NCBI RefSeq assembly: GCF_963921235.1
Contig: NC_086097.1
Span: 65,846,001-65,910,000, forward strand
Direction: 5' to 3'
Length of the DNA stretch: 64,000 bases
Source: Mobula hypostoma
Taxonomy: Eukaryota
How positions within the stretch are numbered: position 1 is the first letter of the stretch; each line of letters starts with the position of its first letter. The notes below the pieces were generated by a model. That model had not been told where the DNA came from. It did not search any database and saw nothing but the letters and a program-made list of their open reading frames with translations. A program made the position numbers and the translations under genes. Positions 1 through 54,310 of this stretch are shown here, in pieces.

Positions 1-2
1 TA

Positions 3-1685
3 GTTCCCACACCCCGCACTTCCCGTTTCTACCTCCTACCCAAGATCCACAAACCTGCCTGTCCTGGCCGACCTATTGTCTCAGCTTGCTCCTGCCCCAC
101 CGAACTCGTTTCTGCATACCTCGAAACTGTTTTATCACCCCTTGTTCAATCCCTTCCGACCTATGTTCGTGACACTTCTCACGCTCTTAAACTTTTCGAT
201 GATTTTAAGTTCCCTGGCCCCCACCGCTTTATTTTCACCATGGATGTCCAGTCCTTATATACTTCCATCCCCCATCAGGAAGGTCTCAAAGCTCTACGCT
301 TCTTTTTGGATTCCAGACCTAATCAGTTCCCCTCTACCACCACTCTGCTCCGTCTAGCGGAATTAGTCCTTACTCTTAATAATTTCTCCTTTTGCTCCTC
401 CCATTTCCTCCAAACTAAAGGTGTAGCTATGGGCACCCGTATGGGTCCTAGCTATGACTGCCTTTTTGTTGGGTTTGTGGTACAATCTATGTTCCGTGCC
501 TATTCTGGTATCTGTCCCCCACTTTTCCTTCGCTATATCGACGACTGCATTGGCGCTGCTTCCTGCACGCATGCAGAACTCGTTGACTTTATTAACTTTG
601 CCTCCAACTTTCACCCTCAAGTTTACCTGGTCTATTTCCGACACCTCCCTCCCCTTCTAGATCTTTCTGTCTCTGTCTCTGGAGACAGCTTATCCACTCA
701 TGTCTACTATAAGCCTACTGACTCTCACAGCTATCTGGACTATTCCTCTTCTCACCCTGTCTCTTGCAAAAACGCCATCCCCTTCTCGCAATTCCTCTGT
801 CTCCGCCGCATCTGCTCTCAGGATGAGGCTTTTCATTCTAGGACGAGGGAGATGTCTTCATTTTTTAAAGAAAGGGGCTTCCCTTCCTCCACTATCAACT
901 CTGCTCTTAAACGCATCTCCTCCATTTCACGTACATCTGCTCTCACTCCATCCTCCCACCACCCCACTAGGAATAGGGTTCCCCTGGTCCTCACCTACCA
1001 CCCCACCAGCCTCCGGGCCCAACATATTATTCTCCGTAACTTCCGCCACTTCCAACGGGATCCCACCACTAAGCACATCTTTCCCTCCCCGCCTCTCTCT
1101 GCATTCCGCAGGGATCGCTCCCTACACAACTCCCTTGTCCATTCGTCCACCCCATCCCTCCCCACTGATCTCCCTCCTGGCACTTATCCGTGTAAGCGGA
1201 ACAAGTGCTACACATGCCCTTACACTTCCTCCCTTACCACCATTCAGGGCCCCAAACAGTCCTTCCAGGTGAGGCATCACTTCACCTGTGAGTCGACTGG
1301 GGTGATATACTGCGTCCGGTGCTCCCGATGTGGCCTTTTATATATTGGTGAGACCCGACGCAGACTGGGAGACCGCTTTGCTGAACATCTACGCTCTGTC
1401 CGCCAGAGAAAGCAGGATCTCCCAGTGGCCACACATTTTAATTCCACATCCCATTCCCATTCTGACATGTCTATCCACGGCCTCCTCTACTGTAAAGATG
1501 AAGCCACACTCAGGTTGGAGGAACAACACCTTATATTCCGTCTGGGTAGCCTCCAACCTGATGGCATGAACATTGACTTCTCTAACTTCCGCTGGGCCCC
1601 ACCTCCCCCTCGTACCCCAGCTGTTACTCATTTTTATGCACACATTCTTTCTCTCACTCTCCTTTTTCTCCCTCTGTCCCTCTGA
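3..1685 (+). CDS. PLE RT-endonuclease ORF, partial (open from the window start)
   Basis: ORF 240..1685 extends in frame to position 3. Relative to copy 2 it has a 5-bp deletion (~615) and a 1-bp deletion (~655) that together restore the frame but scramble about 13 aa. Confidence 0.85.
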   Translation, partial: VPTPRTSRFYLLPKIHKPACPGRPIVSACSCPTELVSAYLETVLSPLVQSLPTYVRDTSHALKLFDDFKFPGPHRFIFTMDVQSLYTSIPHQEGLKALRFFLDSRPNQFPSTTTLLRLAELVLTLNNFSFCSSHFLQTKGVAMGTRMGPSYDCLFVGFVVQSMFRAYSGICPPLFLRYIDDCIGAASCTHAELVDFINFASNFHPQVYLVYFRHLPPLLDLSVSVSGDSLSTHVYYKPTDSHSYLDYSSSHPVSCKNAIPFSQFLCLRRICSQDEAFHSRTREMSSFFKERGFPSSTINSALKRISSISRTSALTPSSHHPTRNRVPLVLTYHPTSLRAQHIILRNFRHFQRDPTTKHIFPSPPLSAFRRDRSLHNSLVHSSTPSLPTDLPPGTYPCKRNKCYTCPYTSSLTTIQGPKQSFQVRHHFTCESTGVIYCVRCSRCGLLYIGETRRRLGDRFAEHLRSVRQRKQDLPVATHFNSTSHSHSDMSIHGLLYCKDEATLRLEEQHLIFRLGSLQPDGMNIDFSNFRWAPPPPRTPAVTHFYAHILSLTLLFLPLSL

Positions 1686-1883
1686 ATATACCTCTTGCCC
1701 ATCCTCTGGGTCACCCCCCCCCCGTCTTTCTTCCCGGACCTCCTGTCCCATGATCCTCTCGTATCCCCTTTTGCCTATCACCTGTCCAGCTCTCGGCTCT
1801 ATCCCTCCCCCTCCTGTCTTCTCCTATCATTTTGCATCTCCCCCTCCCCCTCCAGCTTTCAAATCCCTTACTCACTCTTCCTT

Positions 1884-1925
1884 CAGTTAGTCCTGACGAA
1901 GGGTCTCGGCCTGAAACGTCGACTG
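1884..1925 (+). ncRNA. Minimal type I hammerhead ribozyme
   Basis: agtc-CTGACGA-agggtctcggcct-GAAAC-GTC-gact. Intact CUGAnGA/GAAA core, stem I agtc/gact, short stem II, palindromic ACGT stem III. Predicted cleavage after GUC at 1920. Confidence 0.85.
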
Positions 1926-2058
1926 CGCCTCTTCCTATAGATGCTGCTTGGCCTGCTGCGTTCACCAGCAACTTTGATGTATGTTGCTTGAATTTCCAGC
2001 ATCTGCAGAATTCCTGTTGTTTGCGTTTAAATTCACTACTGCGAAGCCTCTTCCGGTG

Positions 2059-5000
2059 ATGCCTACACCGAAGAAGTTTAGATCCTCTCTTCGACGGGAG
2101 TTCAGTGAAACCATCTCTCACTGCTCCCCATCTGTAATTTCTTCGGCTCTTCAACTTTTCGACCACACTTTGACTCAAACTCGCTATCACAGCCATGTAT
2201 CCTTTCTTGGAACGTGCCTCCGTCGCCAACTTACTCCAGTTGGCTTTAGGATTCGTTTCCAAGCCTCTCAATTTGGACCTTCTGAGGATCCCAGGTACTC
2301 ACATTTTATTGACTCTGCCTCTCGCCGCTTCTCCCGTCAAGCTCTGAAGGTGACGCTCTCCGCCATGAGGAGGTACTTGGTGTCCCTATCCCAGACCCTT
2401 CCACACCTTCGGGACACTTTCTTCGCCGTCTGTAATGGTCCTACCCGGTATTTCATCCTCCGTCGGATCCACGCCTGCAATCGCCGTTTTTTTGACTTTG
2501 TCATGTTAGGCAAAGATCGCAAGATCTTACATATACGGACTCCAGAGCCTGCCGGCCCCGACGCTAGCAGGCATGAACTTTCAATTGCGGCCCCTGCCAT
2601 TGATCTCGGCGGCTCCAACACCTCAGGGCATATTCAAAACCCGGACTCCAGCAACGACCATGGACACCTTCACAGCGATTGCACAACCACCAACTGCGAC
2701 TCCAGCCTTGAACTCCAGGCCGGGTCTTTATGTGCTGCTGTTGTGACTCCCGTCTCCCCTTCCCCCAACAACACTCCGCAGCCCCGTCTTCCTCAGATCC
2801 CACCGTCAGCTCCTGGGCCCTCAGAGGCTCCATCTTCCTCTCACCCCAACCCTCCCCTCTCCACTGACACCCCCAGCCTCCCCCCTCCCCCCTCTGATCC
2901 CAGCTCTCATCCGTGCTGGGTCTTTACCATCCCCTCCGACCTTCAACTGTCGGAGGCAGAACGCTCTGTTCTCAGTAAGGGCCTCACGTTTGTCCCCCTT
3001 CGCCCACACCTCAGCGAGTTCTGTGTTCGCCACGATGCGGAACTTTTCTTCCGCCGTCTCCGTCTCCGAGCCTACTTCTTCGGCAAGGACTCTTCCACCC
3101 CCACCGATGACCCCTTCTCCCGTCTTCAACCCTCCTCTTCTTCATGGACACCCCGCTCTGGTCTTCTGCCTGCTCTGGATCTCTTTATTGCCAACTGCCG
3201 ACGGGACATCAACCGTCTCGACTTCACCGCACCTTGTCCCCATTCCAACCTCACTCCTTCGGAACGCTCTGCTCTCCACTCCCTCCGCACTAATCCTAAC
3301 CTTATTATTAAACCCGCTGATAAAGGGGGTGCTGTTGTAGTCTGGCGTACTGACCTCTACCTTGCCGAGGCACAGCGACAACTCGCGGATACCTCCTCTT
3401 ATTTACCCCTCGATCGTGACCCCACCAAGGAGCACCAGGGCATTGTCTCCCACACTATCAACGACTTTATCCGCTCAGGGGATCTCCCATCCACTGCTAC
3501 CAACCTTATAGTTCCCACACCCCGCACTTCCCGTTTCTACCGCCTACCCAAGATCCGCAAACCTGCCTGTCCTGGCCGACCTATTGTCTCAGCTTGCTCC
3601 TGCCCCACCGAACTCGTTTCTGCATACCTCGACACTGTTTTATCACCCCTTGTTCAATCCCTTCCGACCTATGTTCGTGACACTTCTCACGCTCTTAAAC
3701 TTTTCGATGATTTTAAGTTCCCTGGCCCCCACCGCTTTATTTTCACCATGGATGTCCAGTCCTTATATACTTCCATCCCCCATCAGGAAGGTCTCAAAGC
3801 TCTACGCTTCTTTTTGGATTCCAGACCTAATCAGTTCCCCTCTACCACCACTCTGCTCCGTCTAGCGGAATTAGTCCTTACTCTTAATAATTTCTCCTTT
3901 TGCTCCTCCCATTTCCTCCAAACTAAAGGTGTAGCTATGGGCACCCGTATGGGTCCTAGCTATGCCTGCCTTTTTGTTGGGTTTGTGGAACAATCTATGT
4001 TCCGTGCCTATTCTGGTATCTGTCCCCCACTTTTCCTTCGCTATATCGACGACTGCATTGGCGCTGCTTCCTGCACGCATGCAGAACTCGTTGACTTTAT
4101 TAACTTTGCCTCCAACTTTCACCCTGCCCTCAAGTTTACCTGGTCTATTTCCGACACCTCCCTCCCCTTTCTAGATCTTTCTGTCTCTGTCTCTGGAGAC
4201 AGCTTATCCACTGATGTCTACTATAAGCCTACTGACTCTCACAGCTATCTGGACTATTCCTCTTCTCACCCTGTCTCTTGCAAAAACGCCATCCCCTTCT
4301 CGCAATTCCTCCGTCTCCGCCGCATCTGCTCTCAGGATGAGGCTTTTCATTCTAGGACGAGGGATATGTCTTCATTTTTTTAAAGAAAGGGGCTTCCCTT
4401 CCTCCACTATCAACTCTGCTCTTAAACGCATCTCCTCCATTTCACGTACATCTGCTCTCACTCCATCCTCCCACCACCCCACTAGGAATAGGGTTCCCCT
4501 GGTCCTCACCTACCACCCCACCAGCCTCCGGGTCCAACATATTATTCTCCGTAACTTCCGCCACCTCCAACGGGATCCCACCACTAAGCACATCTTTCCC
4601 TCCCCCCCCTCTCTCTGCATTTCGCAGGGATCGCTCCCTACACAACTCCCTTGTCCATTCGTCCCCCCCATCCCTCCCCACTGATCTCCCTCCTGGCACT
4701 TATCCGTGTAAGCGGAACAAGTGCTACACATGCCCTTACACTTCCTCCCTTACCACCATTCAGGGCCCCAAACAGTCCTTCCAGATGAGGCATCACTTCA
4801 CCTGTGAGTCGACTGGGGTGATATACTGCGTCCGGTGCTCCCGATGTGGCCTTTTATATATTGGTGAGACCCGACGCAGACTGGGAGACCGCTTTGCTGA
4901 ACATCTACGCTCTGTCCGCCAGAGAAAGCAGGATCTCCCAGTGGCCACACATTTTAATTCCACATCCCATTCCCATTCTGACATGTCTATCCACGGCCTC

Positions 5001-5201
5001 CTCTACTGTAAAGATGAAGCCACACTCAGGTTGGAGGAACAACACCTTATATTCCGTCTGGGTAGCCTCCAACCTGATGGCATGAACATTGACTTCTCTA
5101 ACTTCCGCTGGGCCCCACCTCCCCCTCGTACCCCAGCTGTTACTCATTTTTATGCACACATTCTTTCTCTCACTCTCCTTTTTCTCCCTCTGTCCCTCTG
5201 A
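2059..5201 (+). pseudogene. Full-length PLE polyprotein (~1050 aa) with two +1 homopolymer frameshifts
   Basis: Probable start ATG at 2059 (MPTPKKF). Frameshifts at T7 (~4375-4381; T6 in copy 1) and C8 (~4602-4609). ORF pieces 1981..4383, 4214..4684 and 4785..5201 tile the protein. Confidence 0.9.
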
Positions 5202-5399
5202 ATATACCTCTTGCCCATCCTCTGGGTCACCCCCCCCCCGTCTTTCTTCCCGGACCTCCTGTCCCATGATCCTCTCGTATCCCCTTTTGCCTATCACCTG
5301 TCCAGCTCTCGGCTCTATCCCTCCCCCTCCTGTCTTCTCCTATCATTTTGCATCTCCCCCTCCCCCTCCAGCTTTCAAATCCCTTACTCACTCTTCCTT

Positions 5400-5441
5400 C
5401 AGTTAGTCCTGACGAAGGGTCTCGGCCTGAAACGTCGACTG
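5400..5441 (+). ncRNA. Minimal hammerhead ribozyme
   Basis: Identical to 1884-1925. Predicted cleavage after 5436. Confidence 0.85.
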
Positions 5442-5502
5442 CGCCTCTTCCTATAGATGCTGCTTGGCCTGCTGCGTTCACCAGCAACTTTGATGTATGT
5501 TG

Positions 5503-8425: not shown

Positions 8426-10034
8426 CATAAACAAGAGAAAGTCTGCAGATGCTGGAAATCTGAGCAACACACACAAAATGCTGGAGGAACTCAGCAGGCC
8501 AGGCAGCATCTATGGAGCAAAGTACAGTTGATGTCTCGGGCCAAAACCCTTCGCAGGACTGGAGAAAAAAAGCTGAGGAGTAGATTTGAAAAGTGGGGGG
8601 CGGAGAGGGAAAAGCCAGGTGAGAGGTGAAACTTGGAGGGGGAGGGATGGAGCAAAGAGCTTGGAAGTTGATTGGTAAAAGAGCCAGTAGGCCATGGATG
8701 AAAGTAGAAAGGGTGGGGGAGGAGCACCAGAGGGGAGCAATGGACGGGCAAGGAGATAACATGAGAGGGGGACAAGGGGATGGCAAATGGTGAAAGGAGG
8801 AAGTGGAGGCATTACTGGAAGTTTGAGAAATCGATGTTCATGCCATCAGATTGGAGGCTACCCAAACAGAATATAAGGTGTTGTTCCTCCAACCTAAATG
8901 TAGCCTTATCCCAACAGTGCAGTAGGCCATGAATGGACGTATCGGAATGACAATGGGCAGTGCATTAAAATGGGTGGCCACTGGGTGATCCCGTCTGTTC
9001 TGGCGGACAGAGCATAGATGCTTGGTGAAGCGGTCTCCCAATCTACAAATGTTTGTACGTCATGTCGCACCAATATCAAAGGGCATCAAAGGGTATTGGG
9101 TGAAAGCAGGAGAGTGGGGATGACTGGAAGAATTGGATTAGCCCATGATTGAATGGCAGAGCAGACTCGACGGGCCAAATGGCCTACTCCTCCGATATCT
9201 TATGGTCTTATGATATACAAGAGGCCATACTGGGAGCACAAACACAGTATATAACCCCAACAGATTCACAGGTGAAGTGTCACTTCACCTGGGAAGGACT
9301 GTTTGGGGTCCTGAATGGTAGTGAGGGAGGAGGTGTAGGAACAGGTGAAGCACTTGTTCCTCTTGTAAGGATAAGTGCCAGGAGGGAGATAATTGGAGAG
9401 AGACAAATGGACAAAATCTGCTCTCAGGATGAGGCTTTTCATTCTCGAACAGAGGAGGTGTCCTCCTTTTTCAAAGAAAGACGCTTCCCTTCCTCCACCA
9501 TCAACACTGCTCTCAACCACACCTCTTCCATTTCACACACATCTGCTCTTACCCCATCCTACCAGGGATAGGGTTCCTCCTGTCCTCAATTACCACCCCA
9601 CCAGCCTCCGCGTCCAGCACATAATTCTCTGAAACTTCCGCCTCCTCCAACTGGATCCCACCACCAAGCCCATCTTTCCCTCCCCACCACTTTCTGCTTT
9701 CCGCAGGGATTGCTCCCTGAGCGACTCCCTTGTCCTTTCGTCCCTCTCCACCAGCCATCACCTCCCTGTGGTGCTCCTCCCCCATTCTTTCTTCTTTTTT
9801 CCATGGCCTTGTGTCTCTTTCACCAATCAACTTCCTAGCTCTTTGCTTCATCCCTCCCCCTCCAAGTTTCACCTATCACCTGAGGTTTCTCTCTTCCCTT
9901 CCCTCCACCTTTCTAATCTATTCCTCTGCTTTTTTGCTTCAGTCCTGCCAAGGGGTTTCAGCCCAAAACGTTGACTGTACTTTTTTTCAATAGATGCTGC
10001 CTGGCCTGCTGAGTTCCTCCAGCATTTTGTGTGT
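8426..10034. mobile_element. Older PLE insertion with inverted arms (minus arm ~8426-9413, plus arm ~9414-10034)
   Basis: The minus strand encodes the GIY-YIG C-terminus and 3' region. The plus strand starts at ICSQDEAFHSRT. Degenerate hammerheads at ~8525-8560 (-) and ~9940-9977 (+). Candidate TSD atagct at 8420-8425 and 10035-10040. Confidence 0.8.
9075..9213 (+). mobile_element. CR1 3' tail inserted in the PLE arm
   Basis: agggcatcaaaggg...gagcagactcga...cttatggtcttatg matches the CR1 terminus at 14030-14163. Confidence 0.8.
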
Positions 10035-17536: not shown

Positions 17537-20500
17537 TCAAATTAAATGATAATATTTGGCAAAAGAGCCCCACCTTCTCATAAAATCAAATCAGGGATCA
17601 AAAGTTCTACTTCTAATTTTTTCCAAACTAAGACATAACATTACTTGGGAAAATCATTGAATTAGTGTAGGAGCAGAAGTATCTTTCCACTTCAATAAAA
17701 TAGCCCTTCTTGCCAACAGTGTAATGAATGCAATTACATGTTGGTTTGAAAATGAAATACCCTGAATATGATGCGGATCTATTCCAAATAGAACAGTCAA
17801 TGTATTAGGTTGTAAATTAATTTTCAAAGCTTTAGAAATTGTAGAAAATAAAGATTTCCAAAAAGATTTCAATGAGGGACATGACCAGAACATATGTGAC
17901 AAAGTAGCTACTTCATTTTTACACCTATCACAATAATTGTCTATATTAGGAAATATTTTGGATAGCCTCTCCTTTGTTAAATAATGACGGTGAACAATTT
18001 TAAATTGAATTAAACAATGATTGGCACATATCGAAGAAGAATTAACCATTTTCAGAACTCGCAACCAATCTTCGTTAACAGAAGTCATATTAAGTTCTCT
18101 CTCCTAATCTTGTTTAATCTTTAGTGAGAGGTTATCTTTTTGTAGTAAAAATAAATTATAAATTCTACCAACGGAACCTCTCACTAAAGGATTCATATTC
18201 AAAATAGTATCCAACAAATCAGATTCTTGCATATATGGAAACGTAGAAACATATTTTTGTAAAAAATGTCTAACCTGAAAATATTGCAAGAAATGTTTGT
18301 GAGAGAGAGAATATTTGCTAATTAACTCTTCAAAAGTCATCAATCGACCATCACTAAATAAATCTGCAAAAGAATAGATCCCCTTATTTCGCCATAAAAG
18401 AGAAATGGGATCAGTAATTGAAGGTTGAAATAGCAAATTTCGAAATACGGGGCTGGACAATTTAAATTGTTTAAAATTAAAAGAGTTGAGAAACTGAAAA
18501 CAAATCCGTAAGGACTGTTTAATAACAGGGTAGAGATTTAAATTGGGAATTTTAGCAAGTCGTAAAGGTAATGGTGCACCTAATAATGAAGTTAAATGAA
18601 ATTGTTTAATAGCTTTTAATTCCAAATCAATCCAAGCTGGTTTTTGGCTCTTATCGAGCCAATATACCCAAAAACATAGTTGTCGAATATTAACAGCCCA
18701 ATAATACAACCTTAAATTAGGTAGCGCAAGTCCACCATTTTTTTTAGATTTTTGTAAATGAAACTTATTAACTCTTGGTTTTTTATTATTCCAAATAAAG
18801 GACAAAATAGTAGAATCAATTTGATCAAAAAAAATTTTAGTTAGAAAAATAGGTATACTTTGAAAAATATATAAAAATCTAGGTAAAATCATAATTTTCA
18901 CGGCATAAATACGACCTATTAAAGAAAGTGTAAGGGGATTCCATCTAGAAAATAATTGCTTCATAGAGTCCAATAAAGGAACTACATTAGCTTTATAAAG
19001 AGCTTTATATTTTTTTGTAAAGTTAATACCCAAATATTTTAAAGAATTCACAAGTCTAAATGGAATATCATTATATATAAAAACAGGAACATTTAAAGGG
19101 AACAATTCACTTTTGTTTAAATTAAGTTTATATCCTAAAAATTTTCCAAAATCATTTAATAATTCCAAAAGATCAGGAATAGATTCTTCAGGATTCGAAA
19201 TATAAACCAAAAGATCATTTGCATAAAGAGAGATCTTATGTATGGTCCCATTTATAGAAATACCATGAAGGTTTTTAGCTTCACGAATTGTTATAGCCAA
19301 AGGCTCCAGTACAAGATAAAATAATAAAGGACTTAATGGACACCCTTGTCAAGTACCTCGTGAAAGTGAAAAAAAGGGAGACCTAAGATTATTAGTAATA
19401 ATGGTAGTGATAGGGTTCTTACAGATCATTTGAATCCACTTATTGAAATTATTACCAAAGCCAACTTTCTCTAATACATTAAACAAATAAGTCTATTCAA
19501 CTCTATTAAATGCCTTTTCTGCATCCAGAGAAATAACACATTGGGGTGTTTTAGATAATGGTGAATATATAATGTTCATCAATCTCCGAACATTAGAAAA
19601 AGAATAACGGCCTCTAATAAAGCCTGTTTGATCCGTAGAGATAATTTTAGATAAAACGTTTTCCAAATGGTTAGCCATTATCTTAGAAAGAATTTTAGAT
19701 TCCACATTTAATAACAAAATAGGTCTACAAGATGATTCAGTAGGATCTTTATCTAGTCATAGTCATAGTCATAGTCATACTTCATTAATCCCGGGGGAAA
19801 TTGGTTTTCGTTACAATTGCTCCATAAATAATAAATAGTAATAGAACCATAAATAGTTAAATAGTAATATATAAATTATGCCAGTAAATTATGAAATAAG
19901 TCCAGGACCAGCCTATTGGCTCAGGATGTCTGACCCTCCAAGGGAGGAGTTGTAAAGTTTGATGGCCACAGGCAGGAATGACTTCCTATGACGCTCAGTG
20001 CTGCATCTCAGTGGAATGAGTCTCTGGCTGAATGTACTCCTGTGCCCACCCAGTACATTATGTAGTGGATGGGAGACATTGACCAAGATGGCATGCAACT
20101 TAGACAGCATCCTCTTTTCAGACACCACCCTGAGAGAGTCCAGTTCCATCCCCACAACATCAATGGCCTTATGAATGAGTTTGTTCATTCTGTTGGTGTC
20201 TACCACCCTCAGTCTGCTGCCCCAGCACACAACAGCAAACGTGATAGCACTGGCCACCACAGACTCGTAGAACATCCTCAGCATTGTCTGGCAGATGTTA
20301 AAGGACCTCAGTCTCCTCAGGAAATAAAGACGGCTCTGACCCTTCTTGTAGACAGCCTCAGTGTTCTTTGACCAGTCCAGTTTATCGTCAATTCGTATCC
20401 CCAGGTATTTGTAATCCTCCACCATGTCCACACTGACCCCCTGGATGGAAACAGGGGTCACCGGTACCTTAGCTCTCCTCAGTCTACCACCAGCTCCTTA

Positions 20501-22125
20501 GTCTTTTTCATATTAAGCTGCAGATAATTCTGGTCACACCATGTGACGAAGTTTCCTACCGTAGCCCTGTACTCAGCCTCATCTCCCTTGCTGACAGAAG
20601 CTTCATAAAAAGAAGGTAAATTACCTTTCTCAAAAGATTCATGAAATATTTCCAAAAGGTATGGAGAAAGTAATTTTTCAAATTTTTTGTAAAATCCTAC
20701 CGAATAACCATTGAGTCCAGGAGCTTTACCTGATTGCATTGACCATATAGCTTTCTGAATTTCATGCTCAACAATTGGAGCATCAAGGGTCTGTTGATCT
20801 TCAGCAGTAATTTGCGGAAATTTAATCTTATGTAAAAAAGCCTTCATTTTGGAGGGATCTGCAGGAAACTGAGATTTATAAAGATCAGAATAAAAATCCT
20901 GAAAAATATTATTAATATCTTCATAATTACTTACTATATCTCCATTATCTTTACGAATCTTTAAAATTTTTCTTTTAGCTCTAGCAGCCCTTAATTGGGA
21001 AGCTAAGAGCCTATCATTTTTATCCCCAAAAATATAAAACTGACTTTTTAATTTAAGCAAATATCCTTCAATAGGATAAGTTAATAGTAAATTATATTGT
21101 GATTGTAATTCCACTCTTCTTTTAAACAAATCAACATTTGGAAAGATTGCATTGATATTATCTAAATCTTTAATTTGTTTAGCCATTTTATCTAATTCCA
21201 TTCTTGTCTGTTTCTTCAACTTAGCTAAATAAGAAATAATCTAACCATGTAAATAAGCTTTTAACGTATCCCAAATTACTAACTTTGAGACGTTTCCTGT
21301 ATTATTAAAGACTTTTATCTGAGTTTCAATAAACTCGACAAAATCTGAACTTTGTAACAAATGTTCTGGAAAACGCCAAGGTGGTCTTGTAGAAACAACA
21401 TCTTTCAAATCCAATATTAAATTTAAGGAAGCATGATCAGAGATAACAATTGCATCATATTCACATTTCTGAACATTAAATAAAAGTCAAGGGTCGGCTA
21501 TAAAATAGTCGATTCTCGAATACTTATTATGAACATGTGAAAAAAAGAATATTCTCTATCGCTAGGATGCATATGTCTCCAGACTTCAATTAAACCATAA
21601 TCAATTAAAAAGGAATTAACAAGTGATGCAGAGCAATTAGGGAGTTGATGTCTAGAGGATGACTTACCTAATAAAGGATTTAAGCAAGTATTAAAATCTC
21701 CACCCATTAATAACATATTCATTTAAATCAGGTAATAGAGCGAAAGTATCTTTAAAAAATAAGGGATCATCAGCATTTGGTCCATATATATTAACCAAAA
21801 CCATTTTCTTTTTGTAAATTGTTCCTTTAACAATCAAAGATCTACCATTAATATCAGATATAGTATCCTCCTGATTAAAGGGAATATTGAAATCAATAAA
21901 AATGGAAACACCCCTAATTTTACTTTGAGAGTTTGCGTGATTCTGTGGGTCCTTCTAAGATTTAAAAGATCAATTTTTATCACATAACCTGACATGTGTC
22001 TCTTGTGCAAAAATTATATCAGGTTGGAATCGATTAATAATTTTAAGTATTTTCTTACGCTTAATAGGATGATTCCAACCACGGACATTCCAACTTAAAA
22101 CATATAACTGTTTAAGTTACATCAT
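17537..22125 (-). pseudogene. L1 ORF2 (APE, RT, C-terminal Cys motif), multiply disrupted
   Basis: SWNVRG, MGGDFN, SGKAPG, QTGFI, SLDAEKAF, SLYANDLL, KYLGI, GGLALPN, CDRC...TLSHMFWSC. Confidence 0.9.
19754..20595 (-). mobile_element. 5'-truncated Rex1/Babar-like LINE inside L1 ORF2
   Basis: Close match to 7349-8173 in inverted orientation, with a (tagtca)n tail at 19754-19779. Confidence 0.88.
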
Positions 22126-22886: not shown

Positions 22887-23642
22887 TCAGGCTTCAGACT
22901 CACCAGGGAGAGAATTAATGAAACGCAATGCATCGGCTGGATCCTCAAAAATACAAACCCCAGAGTCTTGAGCAAAAAGCCTTAATTTAGCTGGATATTT
23001 AAGAAAAGGATGCATCTGTTTTTTGAAAAGCCATATGCATTACGGCCGCAAATTCAGAACATTTCTGAACAATTTCACGTGGAAAATCTTGAAAGAAACG
23101 AATCTCAGAGCCTTGAAATTTAAACAGTCTTTGTTTTTCTGCCAGTTTAATAATACAGTCTTTGTCTCGAAAATGAACAAAATGCACAATAACATGTTTA
23201 TTTTTGCCTTGTCTCGAAGTTCCAACTCTATGAGCTATTTCAATGTCGGGCAATTGTAGAAAAGCCTCGGGAAATAGAGATTGAAACATATTAGCAGAAT
23301 AGTCCAGTGTGTCGGCTGATTCTGATTTCTATTTCAATCCAACAATTAATGAATATTGTTCCGACGGGAACGAGCTTCCAAATCAACAATTCGTTGTTGA
23401 GCCTTTTCCAGACGAGAGGAAATATCAGCCGCATTGCGAGTTACTTCTTTAAGATCCAAGCTCAAAGAATCAATTTTTTCCTCCAAAAGGAGAAGACTTT
23501 CTTTTAGTTGAGTTAGTTCAGCGACGATAGAGCTAATTTGAGTCTCTAATCTATTAACCCAGGCTGGCTCTTCTGCAGCTTCGTCAGTTTTTTTAGGCTT
23601 ACCTGTATCGGGATTCTTTCTCATGCTTCTCAAGGTAGCCAT
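22887..23642 (-). pseudogene. L1 ORF1 (coiled coil + RRM-like)
   Basis: MATLRS..., coiled coil, DLEARSRRNNI, IEIAHRV, IRFFQDF. Confidence 0.85.
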
Positions 23643-24066
23643 AACTATAATTATCACTTTGCAAGATCCGACTGAATAAAGTTAAAATTTCAAAGTTTAA
23701 GTCGGGAAAGGGAGAAATTAAAGGCAGACAGAAAGACACTATGTCTTACATGTCCACAGGCAGAAGGTGGAGTCCCCGTTACAATTCCTAGTGCTGTATT
23801 ATTCATAGTATAAATCCTAAGCTGGTTTGACTTTCCAAAATATATCACCTCACACTGATGCAGTATATATTGAAATCCATTTGCCACTCCTGCCCCATTC
23901 TCCTAACTGATCAAGAACTCCTTGTAATCTGCGATAATGTTCTTCACTGTGAACAACACCTCCTAACTTCACGTCATCTGCAAGCTTACTAATTAAGGTA
24001 TAAGTAACACTGGACAACAGGGTGACCCGTTGGGTCACCCTTTGAGAGAAGGGTAGTGCAGTCTGA

Positions 24067-28272: not shown

Positions 28273-30254
28273 TCAAATTATAACAAGCCGCCTTTTTTTT
28301 CCCTTTTTTCTTACTTTTGGTCTAAGACCCATTTGGAAACCAAGTCTCTGGAGAGGTCTTCTCTGTCTCTCCGGGTAATGTCTGTCCCGAAACATCTGCT
28401 TTGGGGAATGAGTCTTCACAGGTACATCAGGTGGGTCATCAGCCCTGATGACACGCTTATCTGTACATGAGGCTGATGTGGTCACATCAGGAGTGTTTGC
28501 TTCTATGTCAGGGCAAGGTGTTGTTGTGTTTTTCACCTGAGCATCCAGGATTTGGTCCAAGTGACGTCTCCATACGTTCTCTCCCACCTCCACTGTATAC
28601 ATCAGTGGCCCGTCTATGGCGGAAATTGTACCCGGCTACCACTTTTCAGTCCGGTCATCACATGCAAGAACTGACTGTCCCACACTGAAGCTCCATGTTG
28701 ACTTGGCATTCAAGTGTTTGAACTGTCTGTTCTCCACAGCACACCGTACATCTGGTTTGAGCAGATCCATGCGGGACCTCAGGTTCCTGTTCAGAACATC
28801 ATCGCTGGAGTCTGATTACTGGTTGCATGTACTGCATTGCAATAGTCAAGGAGGAAGTTGTCTATCTTGTGTTGCCGTGGTCGATTTTCGCTGTCCATTG
28901 CCTTGATTGCTTTCTTGAATGTCTGCACAAGTCTTTCTGCCAAGCTATTTGTGGATGGATGGTAAGGGGCAGATGTAAAGTGCTTGATTCCATTGTTCTT
29001 CGCAAAACTTTGGAATTCTTCAGAGACAAATTGTTGTCCATTGCCTCTGCAGATTTGTTCTGGTATGCTATTCCTGGTGAACATGGCCCTTAGAACTGTA
29101 ATGGTCTTTTCCATTGTGGTTGTCTTCATTTTGATGACCTCTGGCCATTTGGAATGTGCATCGACGGCGATTAAAAAGATAGAGTCCATGAATGGCCCAG
29201 TAAAGTCGATGTGCACTCATGCCATGGTGATGAGGGCCACTCCCATGGATGGAGAGGGGCTTGTGGTGGTGTGTTCTGGATCTTTTGATATCCAGAGCAG
29301 TTCTTGGTCAAGTCCTCAATCTGTTTATTGATTCCTGGCCACCACACATAGGCACGGGCAAGACTTTTCATCTTCACGGTACCCAGGTGCCCCTCGTGTA
29401 GTTCCTCCAGCACTCTGGTGCATAGCTTGGGAGGAATCACAACTCATGAACCACACATTAGAGTTCCCCGACACATTGACAACTGCTCCTTCCTCACTGA
29501 GAAGGCTGGAAACAGTGTGTTGCCACGCGCTGGCCATCCCTTTACCGTGACGTCATATACTTTTGACAACATAGGGTCATTGCATGTTTCCCTTTCAATG
29601 AGGCTGTTTGTCACTGGTAATTGTTCAACTATTATTGTGTGAAAGACCTCTGCTGAGTCCATTTGTGTAGTTATCTCTCATGTCGGCAGTGGTAAACATG
29701 ACAAACCATCTGTGTTGCCGTGTTGCTTGGTCCCCTTGTGTTCAACGTCATACATGTGACCTCCTAAGAAAAGAGACCATCGCAGCAGCCTTTGTGCTGT
29801 CATCACTGGAACTCCTTTTCTTGGGTTGAAGATTGACATGAGAGACTTATGGTCAGTCAACAGGATAAACCTTTGACCATACAGGTAGTGACTGAATTTC
29901 TTAACTCCCCAAACGAGTCTTAGGGCCTCTCTGTCAATCTGTGCGTAGTTGCGTTCAGCTGAAGTTAGCGTTCTTGAGGCAAAGGTCTTTCTGAGCCATC
30001 TGGAAACTTGAGCAATAACACAGCTCCTATCCCATGGGGTGAGGCATCACAAGACAGTCGGATTGGTAAGGAGGGGTCAAAGTGCGCGAGCATCCCTTCC
30101 AAAGTTATGAGACTTTTAGTTTCTTGAAACGCTTTCTCACAGCTCTCAGTCCAGGTGTAGGACTGTGGATAGGTTAGGCAAGAACTTGTGGTAATAGTTC
30201 ACTAGTCCAAGATATGCTCTCAGCTGAGACATATTTTCAGGTGGTGGTGCCTGA
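28273..30254 (-). pseudogene. Gypsy pol remnant (end of RT, RNase H, integrase)
   Basis: TDHKSL, LHEGHLGTVKMKSLAR.YVWWPGI, HIDFTGPF, VDAHSKWPEV, APYHPSTNSLAERLVQTFK. Confidence 0.9.
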
Positions 30255-45294: not shown

Positions 45295-47125
45295 CCAACG
45301 CGATTGTTCTAAACACTGGTGCTCCACAAGGCTGCGTCCTCAGCCCCCTACTCTACTCTCTCTACACTCACGAATGTGTGACCAGATTCTGCTCCAACAT
45401 CTAAAAGTTCACAGATGATACCTCTGTAGTGGGCCACATCTCAAGAAATGATGAGTCAGAGTACAGGAAGGAGATAGAGGGCTTAGTGACTTGGTGTCAT
45501 GATAACAACATTTCCCTCAATGTCAATAAAACAAAAGAGCTGGTCATTGACTTTAGAAAGGACACAATGCACATGCAGTATCAACAGTATTGAGGTGTCA
45601 ACATTACCTATAGCCTCTCCTAGTCCAATCAGATTGATACCGAGTCAAGAAAGCTTACCAGTGCTTCTACTTCCTCAGGCATCTAAAGAAATTTGGCATG
45701 TCCTTATAAACTCTTATCAATTTTTGTTGATGCACCATAGAAAGCTTGGTATGGTAACTGCTCTACACTTCACTGCAAGAAACTGCAGAGTTGTGGGCAC
45801 GGATCAGCACATCATGGGAACCAGCTTCTCTAAGGTTCCTCTTGTCCTCACCTATCACCCCATCAGCCTCCATGTCCAGCACATAATTCTTTGGAACTTA
45901 CGCCATCTCCAACAGGATCCCACCACCAAGCACATCTTTCCTCCCTGCCCACACTTTCTGCTTTCCACAGAGATCGTACCCTATGCGACTCACTTGTCCA
46001 TTCATCTCTCCTCACTGATCTCCCTCCTGGCACTTACCCTTACAAGCAGGACAAGTGCTGTACCTGTCTCTACACCACCTCCCTCACTACCATTCAGGGC
46101 CCCAAACAGTCCTTCCAGGTGAAGCAAAACTTCACCTGTGAATCCATTGGAGTCATATACTGTGTTTGGTGCCTCCTGTACATCGGTGATACCTGACATA
46201 GATTGGGAGACTGCTTCGCCAAGCAACTACGCTCTGCTCGCCAGAAGAAGCGGGATCTCCCAGTGGCCACTGTTTAATCCCACATCCCATTCCCATCCTG
46301 ATATATAACTCCATGGCTTCCTCTACAGTCACAACAAGACCACACTCAGTTGGAGGAACAACACCTTATATTCTGTCTGGGTAACCTCCAACCTAATGGC
46401 ATCAACATTGATTTCTCAAACTTTGGGTAATGGCCCCACTTCTGCCCCCTCTTCACCATTCCTCATCTCCTTTTCCCTCTCTCACTTATCTCCTTTCCTG
46501 CCCATCGCCTCCTTCTAGTGCTCCTCCCCACTTTTCTGTCCTCTATTAGACTCCCTCTTCTCCAGCCCTGTATCTCTTTCACCAATCAACTTCCCAGCTC
46601 TTTACATCATCCCTGCCCTCCTGGTTTCACCTATCACCTGTGTTTCTCTCCCCCACCCCCACCTTTTAACTCTATTCCTCACCTATTTTTCTCCAGTCCT
46701 GCAGAAGGGTCTCTGCCCGAAATGTCGATTGTACTCTTTTCCATAGATGCTGCCTGGCCTGCTGAGTTCCTCCAGCATTTTGTATATCTTGCTGTAAGGA
46801 CTTTGTCGATACTGCTCACTGTCTCAGTAAAAGAACCAACATAATCAAAGATACCACCCACCCTGGACTTTCACTCTTCTCCCCTGTCCCACTAGGGAAC
46901 TGAAAGCATGTTCCATCAGGCTCAAGGACAGCTTCTATCCCACTGTTGTCAGACTCTTGAATGGACCTCTTGTATGATAAGATGGACTCTTGGCCTCACA
47001 GTCTACCTTGTTATGATCTTGCACTTTATCATTTTCCTGCACTGCAATTTTTGGTAGCTTTTACACCTTATTCTGCATTGTTACTGTTTTACCATATTCT
47101 ATCAGTGTAATGACTTGATCTGTAT
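45295..47125 (+). mobile_element. Degraded Rex1/Babar-like LINE interrupted by a PLE
   Basis: NTGAPQGCVLSPLLYSLYTHECV, KFTDD, KTKELVIDFRK. Resumes after 46795. Confidence 0.75.
45831..46794 (+). mobile_element. Older 5'-truncated PLE
   Basis: VPLVLTYHP, QGPKQSFQV, LYIGDT, and a degenerate hammerhead at ~46693-46731. Confidence 0.85.
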
Positions 47126-49838: not shown

Positions 49839-49946
49839 TGTAGATGGTTGGAGGAGGAGCTACATCTTTTGAAAGAGCAGAACCAGTCATTGGCTAATAA
49901 CACAAGACAGCTGAGTACTGAAAACAATCAAGAATGTGCCTTGAAG
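49839..49946 (+). CDS. MIPOL1: Internal coding exon of MIPOL1 (mirror-image polydactyly 1, coiled-coil protein)
   Basis: Acceptor ttgtttgtag and donor aag|gtaaat, 108 bp, phase 0-0. CRWLEEELHLLKEQNQSLANNTRQLSTENNQECALK aligns without gaps to the human MIPOL1 segment as I recall it (CKRLEQELHHVKEQNQTSANNMRHLTAENNQERALK). Confidence 0.85.
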
Positions 49947-51041
49947 GTAAATCTTTTGCACACTCTGAGTGAAGTTTGGGTTAACCCACAGGTGTCATCC
50001 TGTCCTTTTGATATCTATTGTTTACATTTCAGCACTAGTACATTTGTCAACAGCCTCTTCTTTAAACAAGGAGTGCAGTACGTTTTTTGGGGGTTTTCAT
50101 GTCCCCTAAAAATTTTTTATAGAATGTTAAATTGGAAAATAGATTAAACTTCACAGTGTCAACATCTGATCAATCTTTTGATATCTTTTCTAGGTATATA
50201 TTTTGTGATTATTTTGAATTAAACATTGTATTCAAATACCAGAACGTTCAAATTTAACTTCATTGTTTAACAGATGCTAATTTTATAATTAGCATCCATT
50301 TTCTAAAATTTATGCTTTTTTGTGTAGTGACTTGGCATTGATGCACTGATACATATGGTCATAAGGTGAACTGAAGAATTAAAAATTCTGGAGCTCTAAA
50401 AACAACCTCTTCCTGGTTTTATCTGGAGTATAAAACCAGATACTTGAAGTATAGCTACTATTTGAAGCAAAAGCTACTATTCACTCACTGGAAACAATAC
50501 ATGTTTTTGCACAAAAATAATTTAACGATTTATAGATCGGACTGACCTCTACCTTGTTGAGAGCAGGAGGCAGTCTCAGACAAAGGAGATGCTATTGTAG
50601 TGTGGTGCACTGACCTCTACTTTGCTGAGACCAGGCAGCACTCTCAGACACCTCCTCATACCTATCCCCTGAAGAAGAGCCCCACTCCAAACCATCAGAA
50701 AACTGTCTCCGACACCATCACCGACTGCATCAACTCTGGGGAGCTCCCATCCACTGCCAGCAAACTCATAGCTTCCTTATCCTGCACTGCTTACTTCTAC
50801 CCCTTGCTCAAGATCCACAAACCTGACTGTCCGGGTAGGCCTATCGTCTCTGCCTGCTTCTGACCCACTGAACTTGTGTTCTCATAGCTCAACTCCCATT
50901 CTATCCCCCTTGGTTCAGCCCCTTCCCACCTACCTCCACAAAACTTCTCATGCTCTTGATCTCCTCACTTCAAATTTTAGCAACATACATCAAAGTTGCT
51001 GGTGAACACAGCAGGCCAAGCAGCATCTATAGGAAGAGGCG

Positions 51042-51083
51042 CAGTCGACGTTTCAGGCCGAGACCCTTCGTCAGGACTAACTG
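51042..51083 (-). ncRNA. Minimal hammerhead ribozyme
   Basis: Reverse complement is identical to 1884-1925. Confidence 0.85.
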
Positions 51084-52091
51084 AAGGAAGAGTGAGTAAG
51101 GGATTTGAAAGCTGGAGGGGGAGGGGGAGATGCAAAATGATAGGAGAAGACAGGAGGGGGAGGGATAGAGCCGAGAGCTGGACAGGTGATAGGCAAAAGG
51201 GGATACGAGAGGATCATGGGACAGGAGGCCTAGGGAGAAAGACGGGGGGGGGGGTGACCCAGAGGATGGGCAAGAGGTATATTCAGAGGGACAGAGGGAG
51301 AAAAAGGAGAGTGAGAGAAAGAATGTGTGCATAAAAATGAGTAACAGCTGGGGTACGAGGGGGAGGTGGGGCCTAGCGGAAGTTAGAGAAGTCAATGTTC
51401 ATGCCATCAGGTTGGAGGCTACCCAGACGGAATATAAGGTGTTGTTCCTCCAACCTGAGTGTGGCTTCATCTTTACAGTAGAGGAGGCCGTGGATAGACA
51501 TGTCAGAATGGGAATGGGATGTGGAATTAAAATGTGTGGCCACTGGGAGATCCTGCTTTCTCTGGCGGACAGAGCGTAGATGTTCAGCAAAGCGGTCTCC
51601 CTCTGTCCGCCAGAGAAAGCAGGATCTCCCAGTGGCCACACATTTTAATTCCACATCCCATTCCCATTCTGACATGTCTATCCACGGCCTCCTCTACTGT
51701 AAAGATGAAGCCACACTCAGGTTGGAGGAACAACACCTTATATTCCGTCTGGGTAGCCTCCAACCTGATGGCATGAACATTGACTTTTCTAACTTCCGCT
51801 AGGCCCCACCTCCCCCTCGTACCCCAGCTGTTACTCCTTTTTATGCACACATTCTTTCTCTCACTCTCCTTTTTCTCCCTCTGTCCCTCTGAATATACCT
51901 CTTGCCCATCCTCTGGGACACCCCCCCCCCCGTCTTTCTCCCTAGGCCTCCTGTCCCATGATCCTCTCGTATCCCCTTTTGCCTATCACCTGTCCAGCTC
52001 TCGGCTCTATCCCTCCCCCTCCTGTCTTCTCCTATCATTTTGCATCTCCCCCTCCCCCTCCAGCTTTCAAATCCCTTACTCACTCTTCCTT

Positions 52092-52133
52092 CAGTTAGTC
52101 CTGACGAAGGGTCTTGGCCTGAAACGTCGACTG
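52092..52133 (+). ncRNA. Minimal hammerhead ribozyme
   Basis: Same as 1884-1925 with one C>T in the stem II loop; core intact. Confidence 0.85.
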
Positions 52134-52554
52134 CGCCTCTTCCTATAGATGCTGCTTGGCCTGCTGCGTTCACCAGCAACTTTGATGTATGTTGCTTGAA
52201 TTTCCAGCATCTGCAGAATTCCTGTTGTTCACTTCAAATTTTATTTTTATTCTTATTATATTCTTATTTTCACCATGGATGTCCAGTCCCTATATACTTC
52301 TATCCTCCATCAAGAAGGCCTTAAAACTCTCCACTTCTTTCTCAATAAAATAACCAACCAATTCCTCTCTATCACCACCCTCCTCAGTCTGACAGACTGA
52401 TCCTCTCCTCAGCAACATTTCCTTCGGCTCTTCTTACTTTCTCCAGGGTCCTAGATATGCCAGCCTCTTCGTTTGCTATGTACAACAGTCCATGTTCCAA
52501 GCTTTCCTCAGAAATACCCCCCAACTTTGCCTTCAACTTCCACCCTGCCCTTAA

Positions 52555-53092
52555 TTGTACTACGGAGAGCATTCTGTCTGGCTGCATCACCGTCTGGTAT
52601 GGGGGGGTGGGGGGGACCATTGCACAAGATCGAAATAAGTTGCAGAAACTTGTTAAATAAGTTAACTCTATCATGGGTACCACCCTGTGTAGTATACAAG
52701 ACACCTTCAAGGAGTGGTGCCTTAAGAAGCTGGTGTCCACCATCTGCTTCACCCAGGATATGCCTTCTTCGCAACGTTACTGTCGGGAAGGAGGTACAGA
52801 AGCTTGAAGGCACACACTCAGCGATTTAGGAACAGCTATTTCCCCTCTGCCATCCAATTTCTAAATAGACATTGAACCCATGAACACTACTTTACTACTT
52901 TTTTATTTCTGTTATTTTGCAGTTCTTATTTTAACTTAACTATTTAATAGACATATATCTGTATGTAATGTAACTTAATGTAACTCAATTTTTTCTCTAT
53001 ATTTATTTATCATGTATTTCATTGTACTGCTGCTGTAAAATTAACAAATTTCACAACTTTTGCCAGTGATATTAAATCTGATTCTGATTCTG
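52555..53092 (+). mobile_element. Rex1/Babar-like LINE 3' fragment inside the old PLE
   Basis: CTTESILSGCITVWYG, with an (attctg)n tail. PLE sequence resumes on both sides. Confidence 0.75.
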
Positions 53093-54310
53093 AATTTCAC
53101 TTGGTCCATTTGTGACATCTCCCTCTTCTTTCTTGATTTCTCTGTCTCCATTTCTGGAGAAAAACTGTTGACCGACATCTTTTATAAACATACTGATTCT
53201 CATGGTTATCTTGGCTATACCTTCTCCCACCCTATCTCCTGTAAAAATGCTAATCCCTTTTCTCAGTTTCTTCGCCTCCACGGCATCTGTTCCCAGGACG
53301 CGGCTTTCCATTCCAGGACATCAGAAGGGTTTTCCTCCCTCCACTATTGATGCTGCCTTCACCCACATCTCCTGCATTTCCCGAACATCTGCACTCGCTC
53401 ATCTTCCCGCTGCCTTAACAGCGACAGAGTTCCTCTTGTCCTTACCCCATCAGTGTCCGCATCCAACACATCATCTTTCGCCACGTCCAAAAGGATCCTA
53501 CCACTAAACATATCTTTACCTCCTCCTTCTCTCTCTGCTTTCCACAGTGATTGCTCCCACCGTGATTCCCTTGTCCATTCATCCCTCCCCATTAATCTCC
53601 ATTCTGGCACTTATCCCTGCAAGTGGCCAAAGTGCTACACATGCCCATTCACCTCCTCCCTCACTTCCATTCAGGGCCCCAAACAATCCTTCCAGGTGAG
53701 GCAACACTTTACCCGCAAGGCTGCTGGGGTGGTCTATTGTGTCCAGTGGTCTCAATGCAGCCTCCTGTACGTTGGTGAGACCCATCGTAAATTGGGGGAA
53801 CATTTCATTGAGCACCAAAAACAGAACTTCCCAGTGGCCAAACATTTTAATTCCGATTCCCATTCTCATTCCTAAATGTTGGTCCATGGCCTCCTCTCTT
53901 GTCCTAAGAGGAGGCCACCCTCAGGGTGGAGGAGCAACACCTTTTATTCCATTTGGGTTGCCTCCAATCTGATGGCATGAATATTAATTTCTTCTTCCGG
54001 TAAAAAAATAATTCCATCTCCTTCCCCTTTTCTTCTATTCCTCAGTCTGGCCCCTCTTACCTCTTCTCACCTGCCTATCATCTTCCCCAGGCCCCCTCTA
54101 CCTTTCCATTCTCCTCTGGTCCTCTCTCATCTCTTATCAGATTCCTTTCTCTCCATCCCTTTATCTTTTCAACCCACCTATAGCTTCACCTATCATCTTA
54201 TAGCTATCCTCCTTCCCCTCCCCCCACCTTTTTATTCTGGCTTCTTCCCCCTTCCTTTTCAGTCCTGAAACAGGGTGTCCCCTGAAACGTCAACTGTTTA
54301 TTGATTTCTG

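Follow-up and report, generated by a model that had tools for sequence, protein, structure and literature searches.

The palindrome described here lies in an intron of MIPOL1, at 50965–52243 of the window (the whole 64,000-nt stretch of Mobula hypostoma DNA that was analysed), and consists of two 5'-truncated copies of a Penelope-like element (PLE) that meet head to head within one TSD. The features of the locus and the copy used for reference are as follows (window coordinates and strand).

1–5502, plus strand: family reference, an almost complete partial tandem that is 98% identical
49839–49946, plus strand: MIPOL1 coding exon, ∼1.0 kb upstream of the palindrome, which lies in the following intron
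50620–50964, plus strand: older decayed PLE RT fragment, left part (the target), from translation and colinear alignment
50965–50979, plus strand: left TSD copy, 15 bp maximal and 13 bp minimal, present once in the reconstructed pre-insertion site
50979–51574, minus strand: left arm, a 5'-truncated PLE copy ending at the tail-less 3' terminus of the family
51042–51079, minus strand: predicted minimal hammerhead of the left arm, in antisense orientation relative to MIPOL1 transcription (motif read)
51575–51600, minus strand: spacer of 26 nt, an additional 5' extension of the left arm
51601–52196, plus strand: right arm, a 5'-truncated PLE copy whose 5' end lies at a small imperfect palindrome within a truncation cluster (element −590 to −620)
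52096–52133, plus strand: predicted minimal hammerhead motif of the right arm, with a predicted cut after 52128 (motif read)
52197–52229, plus strand: PLE tail of 33 nt, on the right arm only
52229–52243, plus strand: right TSD copy
52244–52530, plus strand: older decayed PLE RT fragment, right part, with an AT-rich patch at its start, from colinear alignment

The MIPOL1 exon is 88% identical to ray proteins and its splice sites could be read; the next matched exon lies ∼83 kb downstream, which confirms the intronic position proposed in the initial annotation. The two arms (596 bp each) align without gaps and with five mismatches. The spacer is element sequence that runs on from the left arm on the minus strand, keeps the endonuclease frame (GDRFAEHLRSVRQ) and meets the right arm with 1 nt of microhomology. 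The tail matches the continuation of the family into the next tandem unit and, in tandem copies, shares its frame with the beginning of that unit's long open frame. Each arm comprises the end of the GIY-YIG ORF (the last ∼75 endonuclease codons only), the 3' UTR/pLTR and the hammerhead core; the locus lacks an RT and is probably inert. The direct repeat TCACTTCAAATTTTA is found at both ends, and its size is given as 13–15 bp because one base per junction can be assigned to either element or target. Together with one copy of this repeat, the flanks align colinearly, with small gaps only, to the RT portion of the reference copy, which identifies the target as an older PLE fragment and the repeat as a true TSD. 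Adjoining the TSD, ∼22 nt of AT-rich sequence (52244–52265) stand in place of GC-rich RT-coding sequence. The initial annotation had described two 596-bp arms with about five mismatches, a 26-nt spacer made of element sequence, a further 33-nt tail on the right arm alone and one 13–15-bp TSD round the whole, and our measurements agree on each of these points. Its reading of the structure as a single insertion event is supported by the lone TSD and by a centre that contains neither a TSD nor host DNA.

The reference copy lies in an upstream MIPOL1 intron and contains an 801-aa open frame and a frameshift near 4356–4380. It gives RVT_1 and GIY-YIG matches with E values of 4e-5 to 5e-4, each below the Pfam curated cut-off, and is itself part of a head-to-head structure, its partner being an inverted, tailed arm of 1 kb that lies immediately upstream of the window (L021:1837–2855). 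The family displays the features by which EN+ PLEs are recognized: one ORF with an RT and, at the C terminus, a GIY-YIG endonuclease (in the parent element), a partial-tandem pLTR with an adjacent inverted 5'-truncated copy (at L021 and at 46 of 87 sampled loci), a 30–40-bp tail at one end and, as judged from the core motif, a putative hammerhead in the pLTR. In the reference translation, a CX4CxxC zinc-finger linker (CKRNKCYTC) is followed by a GIY-YIG domain with two cysteines between GIY and YIG, matching the CX2–5CxxC linker between RT and EN and the CCHH motif of Neptune and Nematis; such a linker is given as a mark of these two clades in the available text of PMC8557442. The family thus appears to be a Neptune-type PLE, the choice between Neptune and Nematis resting on motifs and host group. 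The PLE identity proposed earlier for the palindrome is upheld by the RT and GIY-YIG similarity and by the linker in this 98%-identical copy. Older PLE relatives with 70–85% identity to the arms are also present in the window (53000–54300, 8431–9012 and 46232–46793). Further fragments (20482–21240, 23002–23681 and 28276–29216, minus strand) we take to be like L1-type ORF2, ORF1 and an LTR-element integrase.

A ribozyme had been annotated at each end of the palindrome, and a candidate hammerhead core (CUGACGA, stem II, GAAAC-GUC) is indeed located 63–100 nt inside each arm end. No Rfam match was obtained in the window at the gathering score, and at E ≤ 10 no hammerhead was matched, only generic hairpin families far below their cut-off. 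The monomer does not fold into a hammerhead shape in silico (z of 0.5–0.6), as expected for dimer-type motifs, and the core is conserved in the commonest of the 157 regex matches among the family loci examined. The motifs resemble the minimal PLE hammerheads of PMC4209133, as far as its available text describes them, in having a core without a stable helix III and in forming opposite-strand pairs, but the pairs noted there are 100–700 bp apart and those of the palindrome ∼1 kb. In a MIPOL1 transcript the right motif alone would be in the sense orientation, and because it would lie in a duplex with its complement, no cleavage is expected. Many family copies among loci L040–L126 are only 100–150 bp long and start at about −90 to −110, where the hammerhead has its upstream edge, and a smaller group starts near the predicted cut site at −66.

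The wider family was probed with a 27-nt 3'-end motif, which has 15,899 exact matches in this genome. The first 100 matches in order of position correspond to 87 loci (L040–L126), all of which were examined; loci picked by a focal-junction query (L001–L039) or by allele patterns (L127–L166) were left out of the frequency estimates. The head-to-head layout occurs at 46 of the 87 loci, which contain 51 such junctions, 44 of them with both ends classifiable. The 3' ends fall into two groups, near element positions 0 and +36, and one tailed end is combined with one tail-less end in 42 of the 44 pairs (22 expected, p = 6e-11), L042 being a tail/tail pair. Among the loci chosen by allele pattern, the same combination is found in all 24 further classifiable pairs (26/26 when the focal locus and L094 are included, with 10 of 36 pairs unclassifiable). 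An exact TSD of 10–17 bp flanks 52 of 56 tail/no-tail pairs (mode 14–15, mostly 13–15 bp), or 39 of 40 in the unbiased sample. The TSDs are 67% AT, and their ends match the element continuation at ∼4 of 8 bases, compared with 2.3 in a rough null.

Second-arm length varies from ∼13 nt, a scrap of tail at L092, to more than 1 kb, and some second arms, including that of L079, end before any 3' terminus. At L092 and L058 the inverted second arm is a scrap of ∼13–46 nt round the tail, and some apparently single copies are therefore hidden head-to-head events. The 5' ends between −400 and −1000 number 75, of which 17 sit at −566 to −639; truncation points seem to be clustered at about −410, −600 and −950, although the first of these may be an effect of selection by allele pattern. 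The arm that extends further 5' is the tail-less one in 27 pairs and the tailed one in 13 in the first sample (8 versus 1 for differences above 100 nt). The corresponding counts in the second sample are 10 versus 14 (5 versus 8), and a generally longer tail-less arm was rejected as unreplicated. The longer arm may be of either kind, which speaks for two independent cDNAs. Extrapolation from the first 17 Mb of one contig gives, for copies bearing the exact motif, ∼7,300 head-to-head loci and roughly 100–1,350 long, nearly perfect palindromes. Independent ∼600-bp twins of the focal structure, with three to five mismatches between arms, are present at L140, L152 and L156. The rarity implied by the initial annotation does not hold, since about half of the sampled loci have the same layout and near-identical twins exist. 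The palindrome is real and was rightly described, and it is an ordinary product of its retroelement family; as one of an estimated several thousand alike, it carries little weight by itself, and the family-wide pattern matters more.

The arms of the focal palindrome differ at a site that separates two sub-families, with A in the left arm (51338) and C in the right arm (51837). Copies carrying the two alleles number 1701 and 564 in the genome, and a third allele, which serves as a proxy for new mutation, is found in three (3/2268). In the other sub-family, C is seen in 77 of 6657 copies as well, which places the background rate of change at this site between 3/2268 and 77/6657; given these copies and the position of the single base next to a T-run, recurrent change or gene conversion is possible at the focal locus. 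A split between two real sub-families nevertheless favours two templates over fold-back, and we consider two templates likely here, as a rough estimate from one base that gene conversion may also have altered. No private variant common to both focal arms was found, and none of the other four mismatches marks a sub-family. At seven other loci (L047, L048, L054, L137, L145, L149 and L158) the two arms of an insertion differ in multi-site haplotype, a result that one copied cDNA cannot yield; the discordant multi-site pairs at L137, L145, L149 and L158 all have distant 5' ends. Across the family, the diagnostic site is concordant in 24 of 26 pairs, where 11 mixed pairs would be expected, and the focal locus is one of the two mixed pairs; discordant sites between arms number 81 against 238 expected. 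The 5' ends are less than 50 nt apart in 4 of 13 long pairs (0.5 expected) and, in a second set, in 12 of 30 (2.9 expected), the latter count leaving out the focal locus, L021, L138, L139, L160 and L165 as reference-truncated or complex. Haplotype concordance and coupled 5' ends are both predicted by fold-back and so count against two independent cDNAs; they would also fit RTs travelling together on one RNA, and the evidence here is mixed.

Taken with the tail rule, these observations lead us to regard the palindrome, one PLE insertion of two 5'-truncated copies, head to head in a single 13–15-bp TSD, as probably generated by reverse transcription primed from both nicked target strands. The GIY-YIG endonuclease would nick the two strands ∼14 bp apart in AT-rich DNA. 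One target 3' end would then prime at the distal RT start site, yielding the tailed arm; the other end would give rise to the tail-less arm by priming at the proximal site ∼33 nt upstream. Both cDNAs would halt ∼590–620 nt in, at the recurrent truncation cluster, after which their 3' ends could be joined through 0–5 nt of microhomology and the second strands filled in. The two focal cDNAs probably derive from template units that differed slightly, whether two RNAs or a pair of units within one tandem transcript. The tail rule requires that both target ends were used for priming, whichever way the centre was joined, and the 42 of 44 pairs with one tailed and one tail-less end strengthen the two-strand idea of the initial annotation. 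It argued soundly that the 33-nt tail could not be templated if the left arm had simply folded back; the later trimming of the left end that it entertained is unneeded, the tail-less and tailed ends being the two normal 3' termini of the family. At the junctions of L140, L152 and L156, short templated insertions have been copied from sequence a few bases away, which we read as end joining.

For the family as a whole, we lean slightly towards PLE integration as an obligately asymmetric two-strand reaction, in which one enzyme dimer would prime the two strands at the distal and proximal starts, the two RTs would often halt together and two RNA templates could be used. If so, head-to-head palindromes would be the normal product and a route to chimeric copies. 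The thousands of young copies in this genome would allow a statistical test of this model against the published explanation by self-priming.

The closest rival is a hybrid with fold-back, in which the long cDNA of the left (tail-less) arm folded back from its 3' end, was copied into the right arm and annealed to a short cDNA from the other target end that supplied the tail. In its favour, the focal 5' ends are 27 nt apart, near-diagonal junctions are enriched in the family, the arms are concordant at all 25 informative non-CpG sites and weak self-pairing of the spacer is possible; self-priming is also how junction palindromes are explained in the available text of PMC3846280. Against it, the C/A difference lies 356 nt from the 3' end and involves two common haplotypes, so that the tail-side cDNA would have to reach ∼390 nt or a later mutation or conversion be invoked. 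The junction microhomology is 1 nt only, the arms of L048 are discordant despite a perfectly diagonal junction, and priming at both target ends would be required anyway. We therefore judge this origin unlikely. That two insertions occurred separately at one spot, or that copies later recombined or underwent gene conversion with one another, might be suggested by the haplotype difference between the arms and by the great abundance of the family, but is very improbable in view of the single TSD round the whole, the centre without TSD or host DNA and the recurrence of the layout at about half of the loci under a strict tail rule. An assembly or fold-back-read artefact is less credible still. No contig of the public sequencing runs spans any of the junctions, where mapping is swamped by repeats, or reveals an empty allele, and the one X2 and one X5 contig that reach the right junction diverge in or just past the TSD and are probably paralogues; yet contigs of run X2 match the left flank without differences, the arms differ at five sites, the flanks are not mirrored and are colinear as an empty site, and the TSD and one-sided tail obey the family rule. 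It is just as hard to credit that a ready-made palindromic non-autonomous element moves as a unit: several ∼1.2-kb look-alikes exist, but these vary in their junctions and in which arm is tailed, and the six loci with a junction at the focal position have six different spacers, the focal junction occurring once, which also led us to reject a MITE- or retrozyme-like unit with many copies of the same centre.

In LINE-1 twin priming, both target ends prime on the element RNA and an inverted segment is joined by microhomology within one TSD; the inverted part is upstream sequence, and the outcome is a minority one. The both-strand-primed PLE insertion proposed here shares with it the priming at both ends and the inverted segment inside one TSD. 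It differs in that the PLE primers would be placed at fixed sites 33 nt apart, which leads to a double copy of one sequence, at about half of the loci.

The head-to-head PLE layout itself has been published (Arkhipova, 2013; Craig, 2021, in the parts available). An inverted pLTR, an optional 31-bp tail and a flanking TSD are called the 'typical Penelope structure' in the available text of PMC3846280, and that of PMC8557442 notes that the tail is often at one end only. The focal structure resembles the canonical EN+ PLE of these sources (Pen2a_Av in PMC3846280; PMC8557442, Fig. 2) in the inverted 5'-truncated copy placed head to head at the 5' end, in the 30–40-bp tail at one end that overlaps the ORF start and in the single TSD round the whole. 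It differs in that both arms are cut to ∼600 bp and the whole insert is palindromic and without RT, and its TSD of 13–15 bp compares with 8–10 bp in the rotifer PLE examples available. As described in the main text of PMC11167929 (Frangieh, 2024), a purified PLE protein nicks and extends both target strands in vitro, and RT begins at two sites that flank the tail downstream of the hammerhead, with no strand difference in the use of these start sites. That element, the Anolis Poseidon PAc, is similar to the focal family in its two RT start sites, in nicking and extension of both strands and in its AT-rich targets. It is a Poseidon element, whereas the focal family is Neptune-type; the main text describes neither head-to-head products nor a rule of one tail per insertion, and states that RNA start site and target share no homology, in contrast to the TSD-end matches of the focal family. 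Among the papers listed for Penelope in the literature covered, mostly open access, none appears to quantify the one-tail rule or two-template arms. These two patterns and the coupled truncation points bear on the formation of inverted PLE structures, which is unsettled in the available text of the cited papers.

In intron RNA the palindrome is predicted in silico to form 600 base pairs. An intronic transcript would accordingly fold into the dsRNA hairpin that the initial annotation correctly predicted. By extrapolation, such a hairpin would be common to hundreds to thousands of other loci, and the intronic palindromes of this family would yield large amounts of long dsRNA in this genome.
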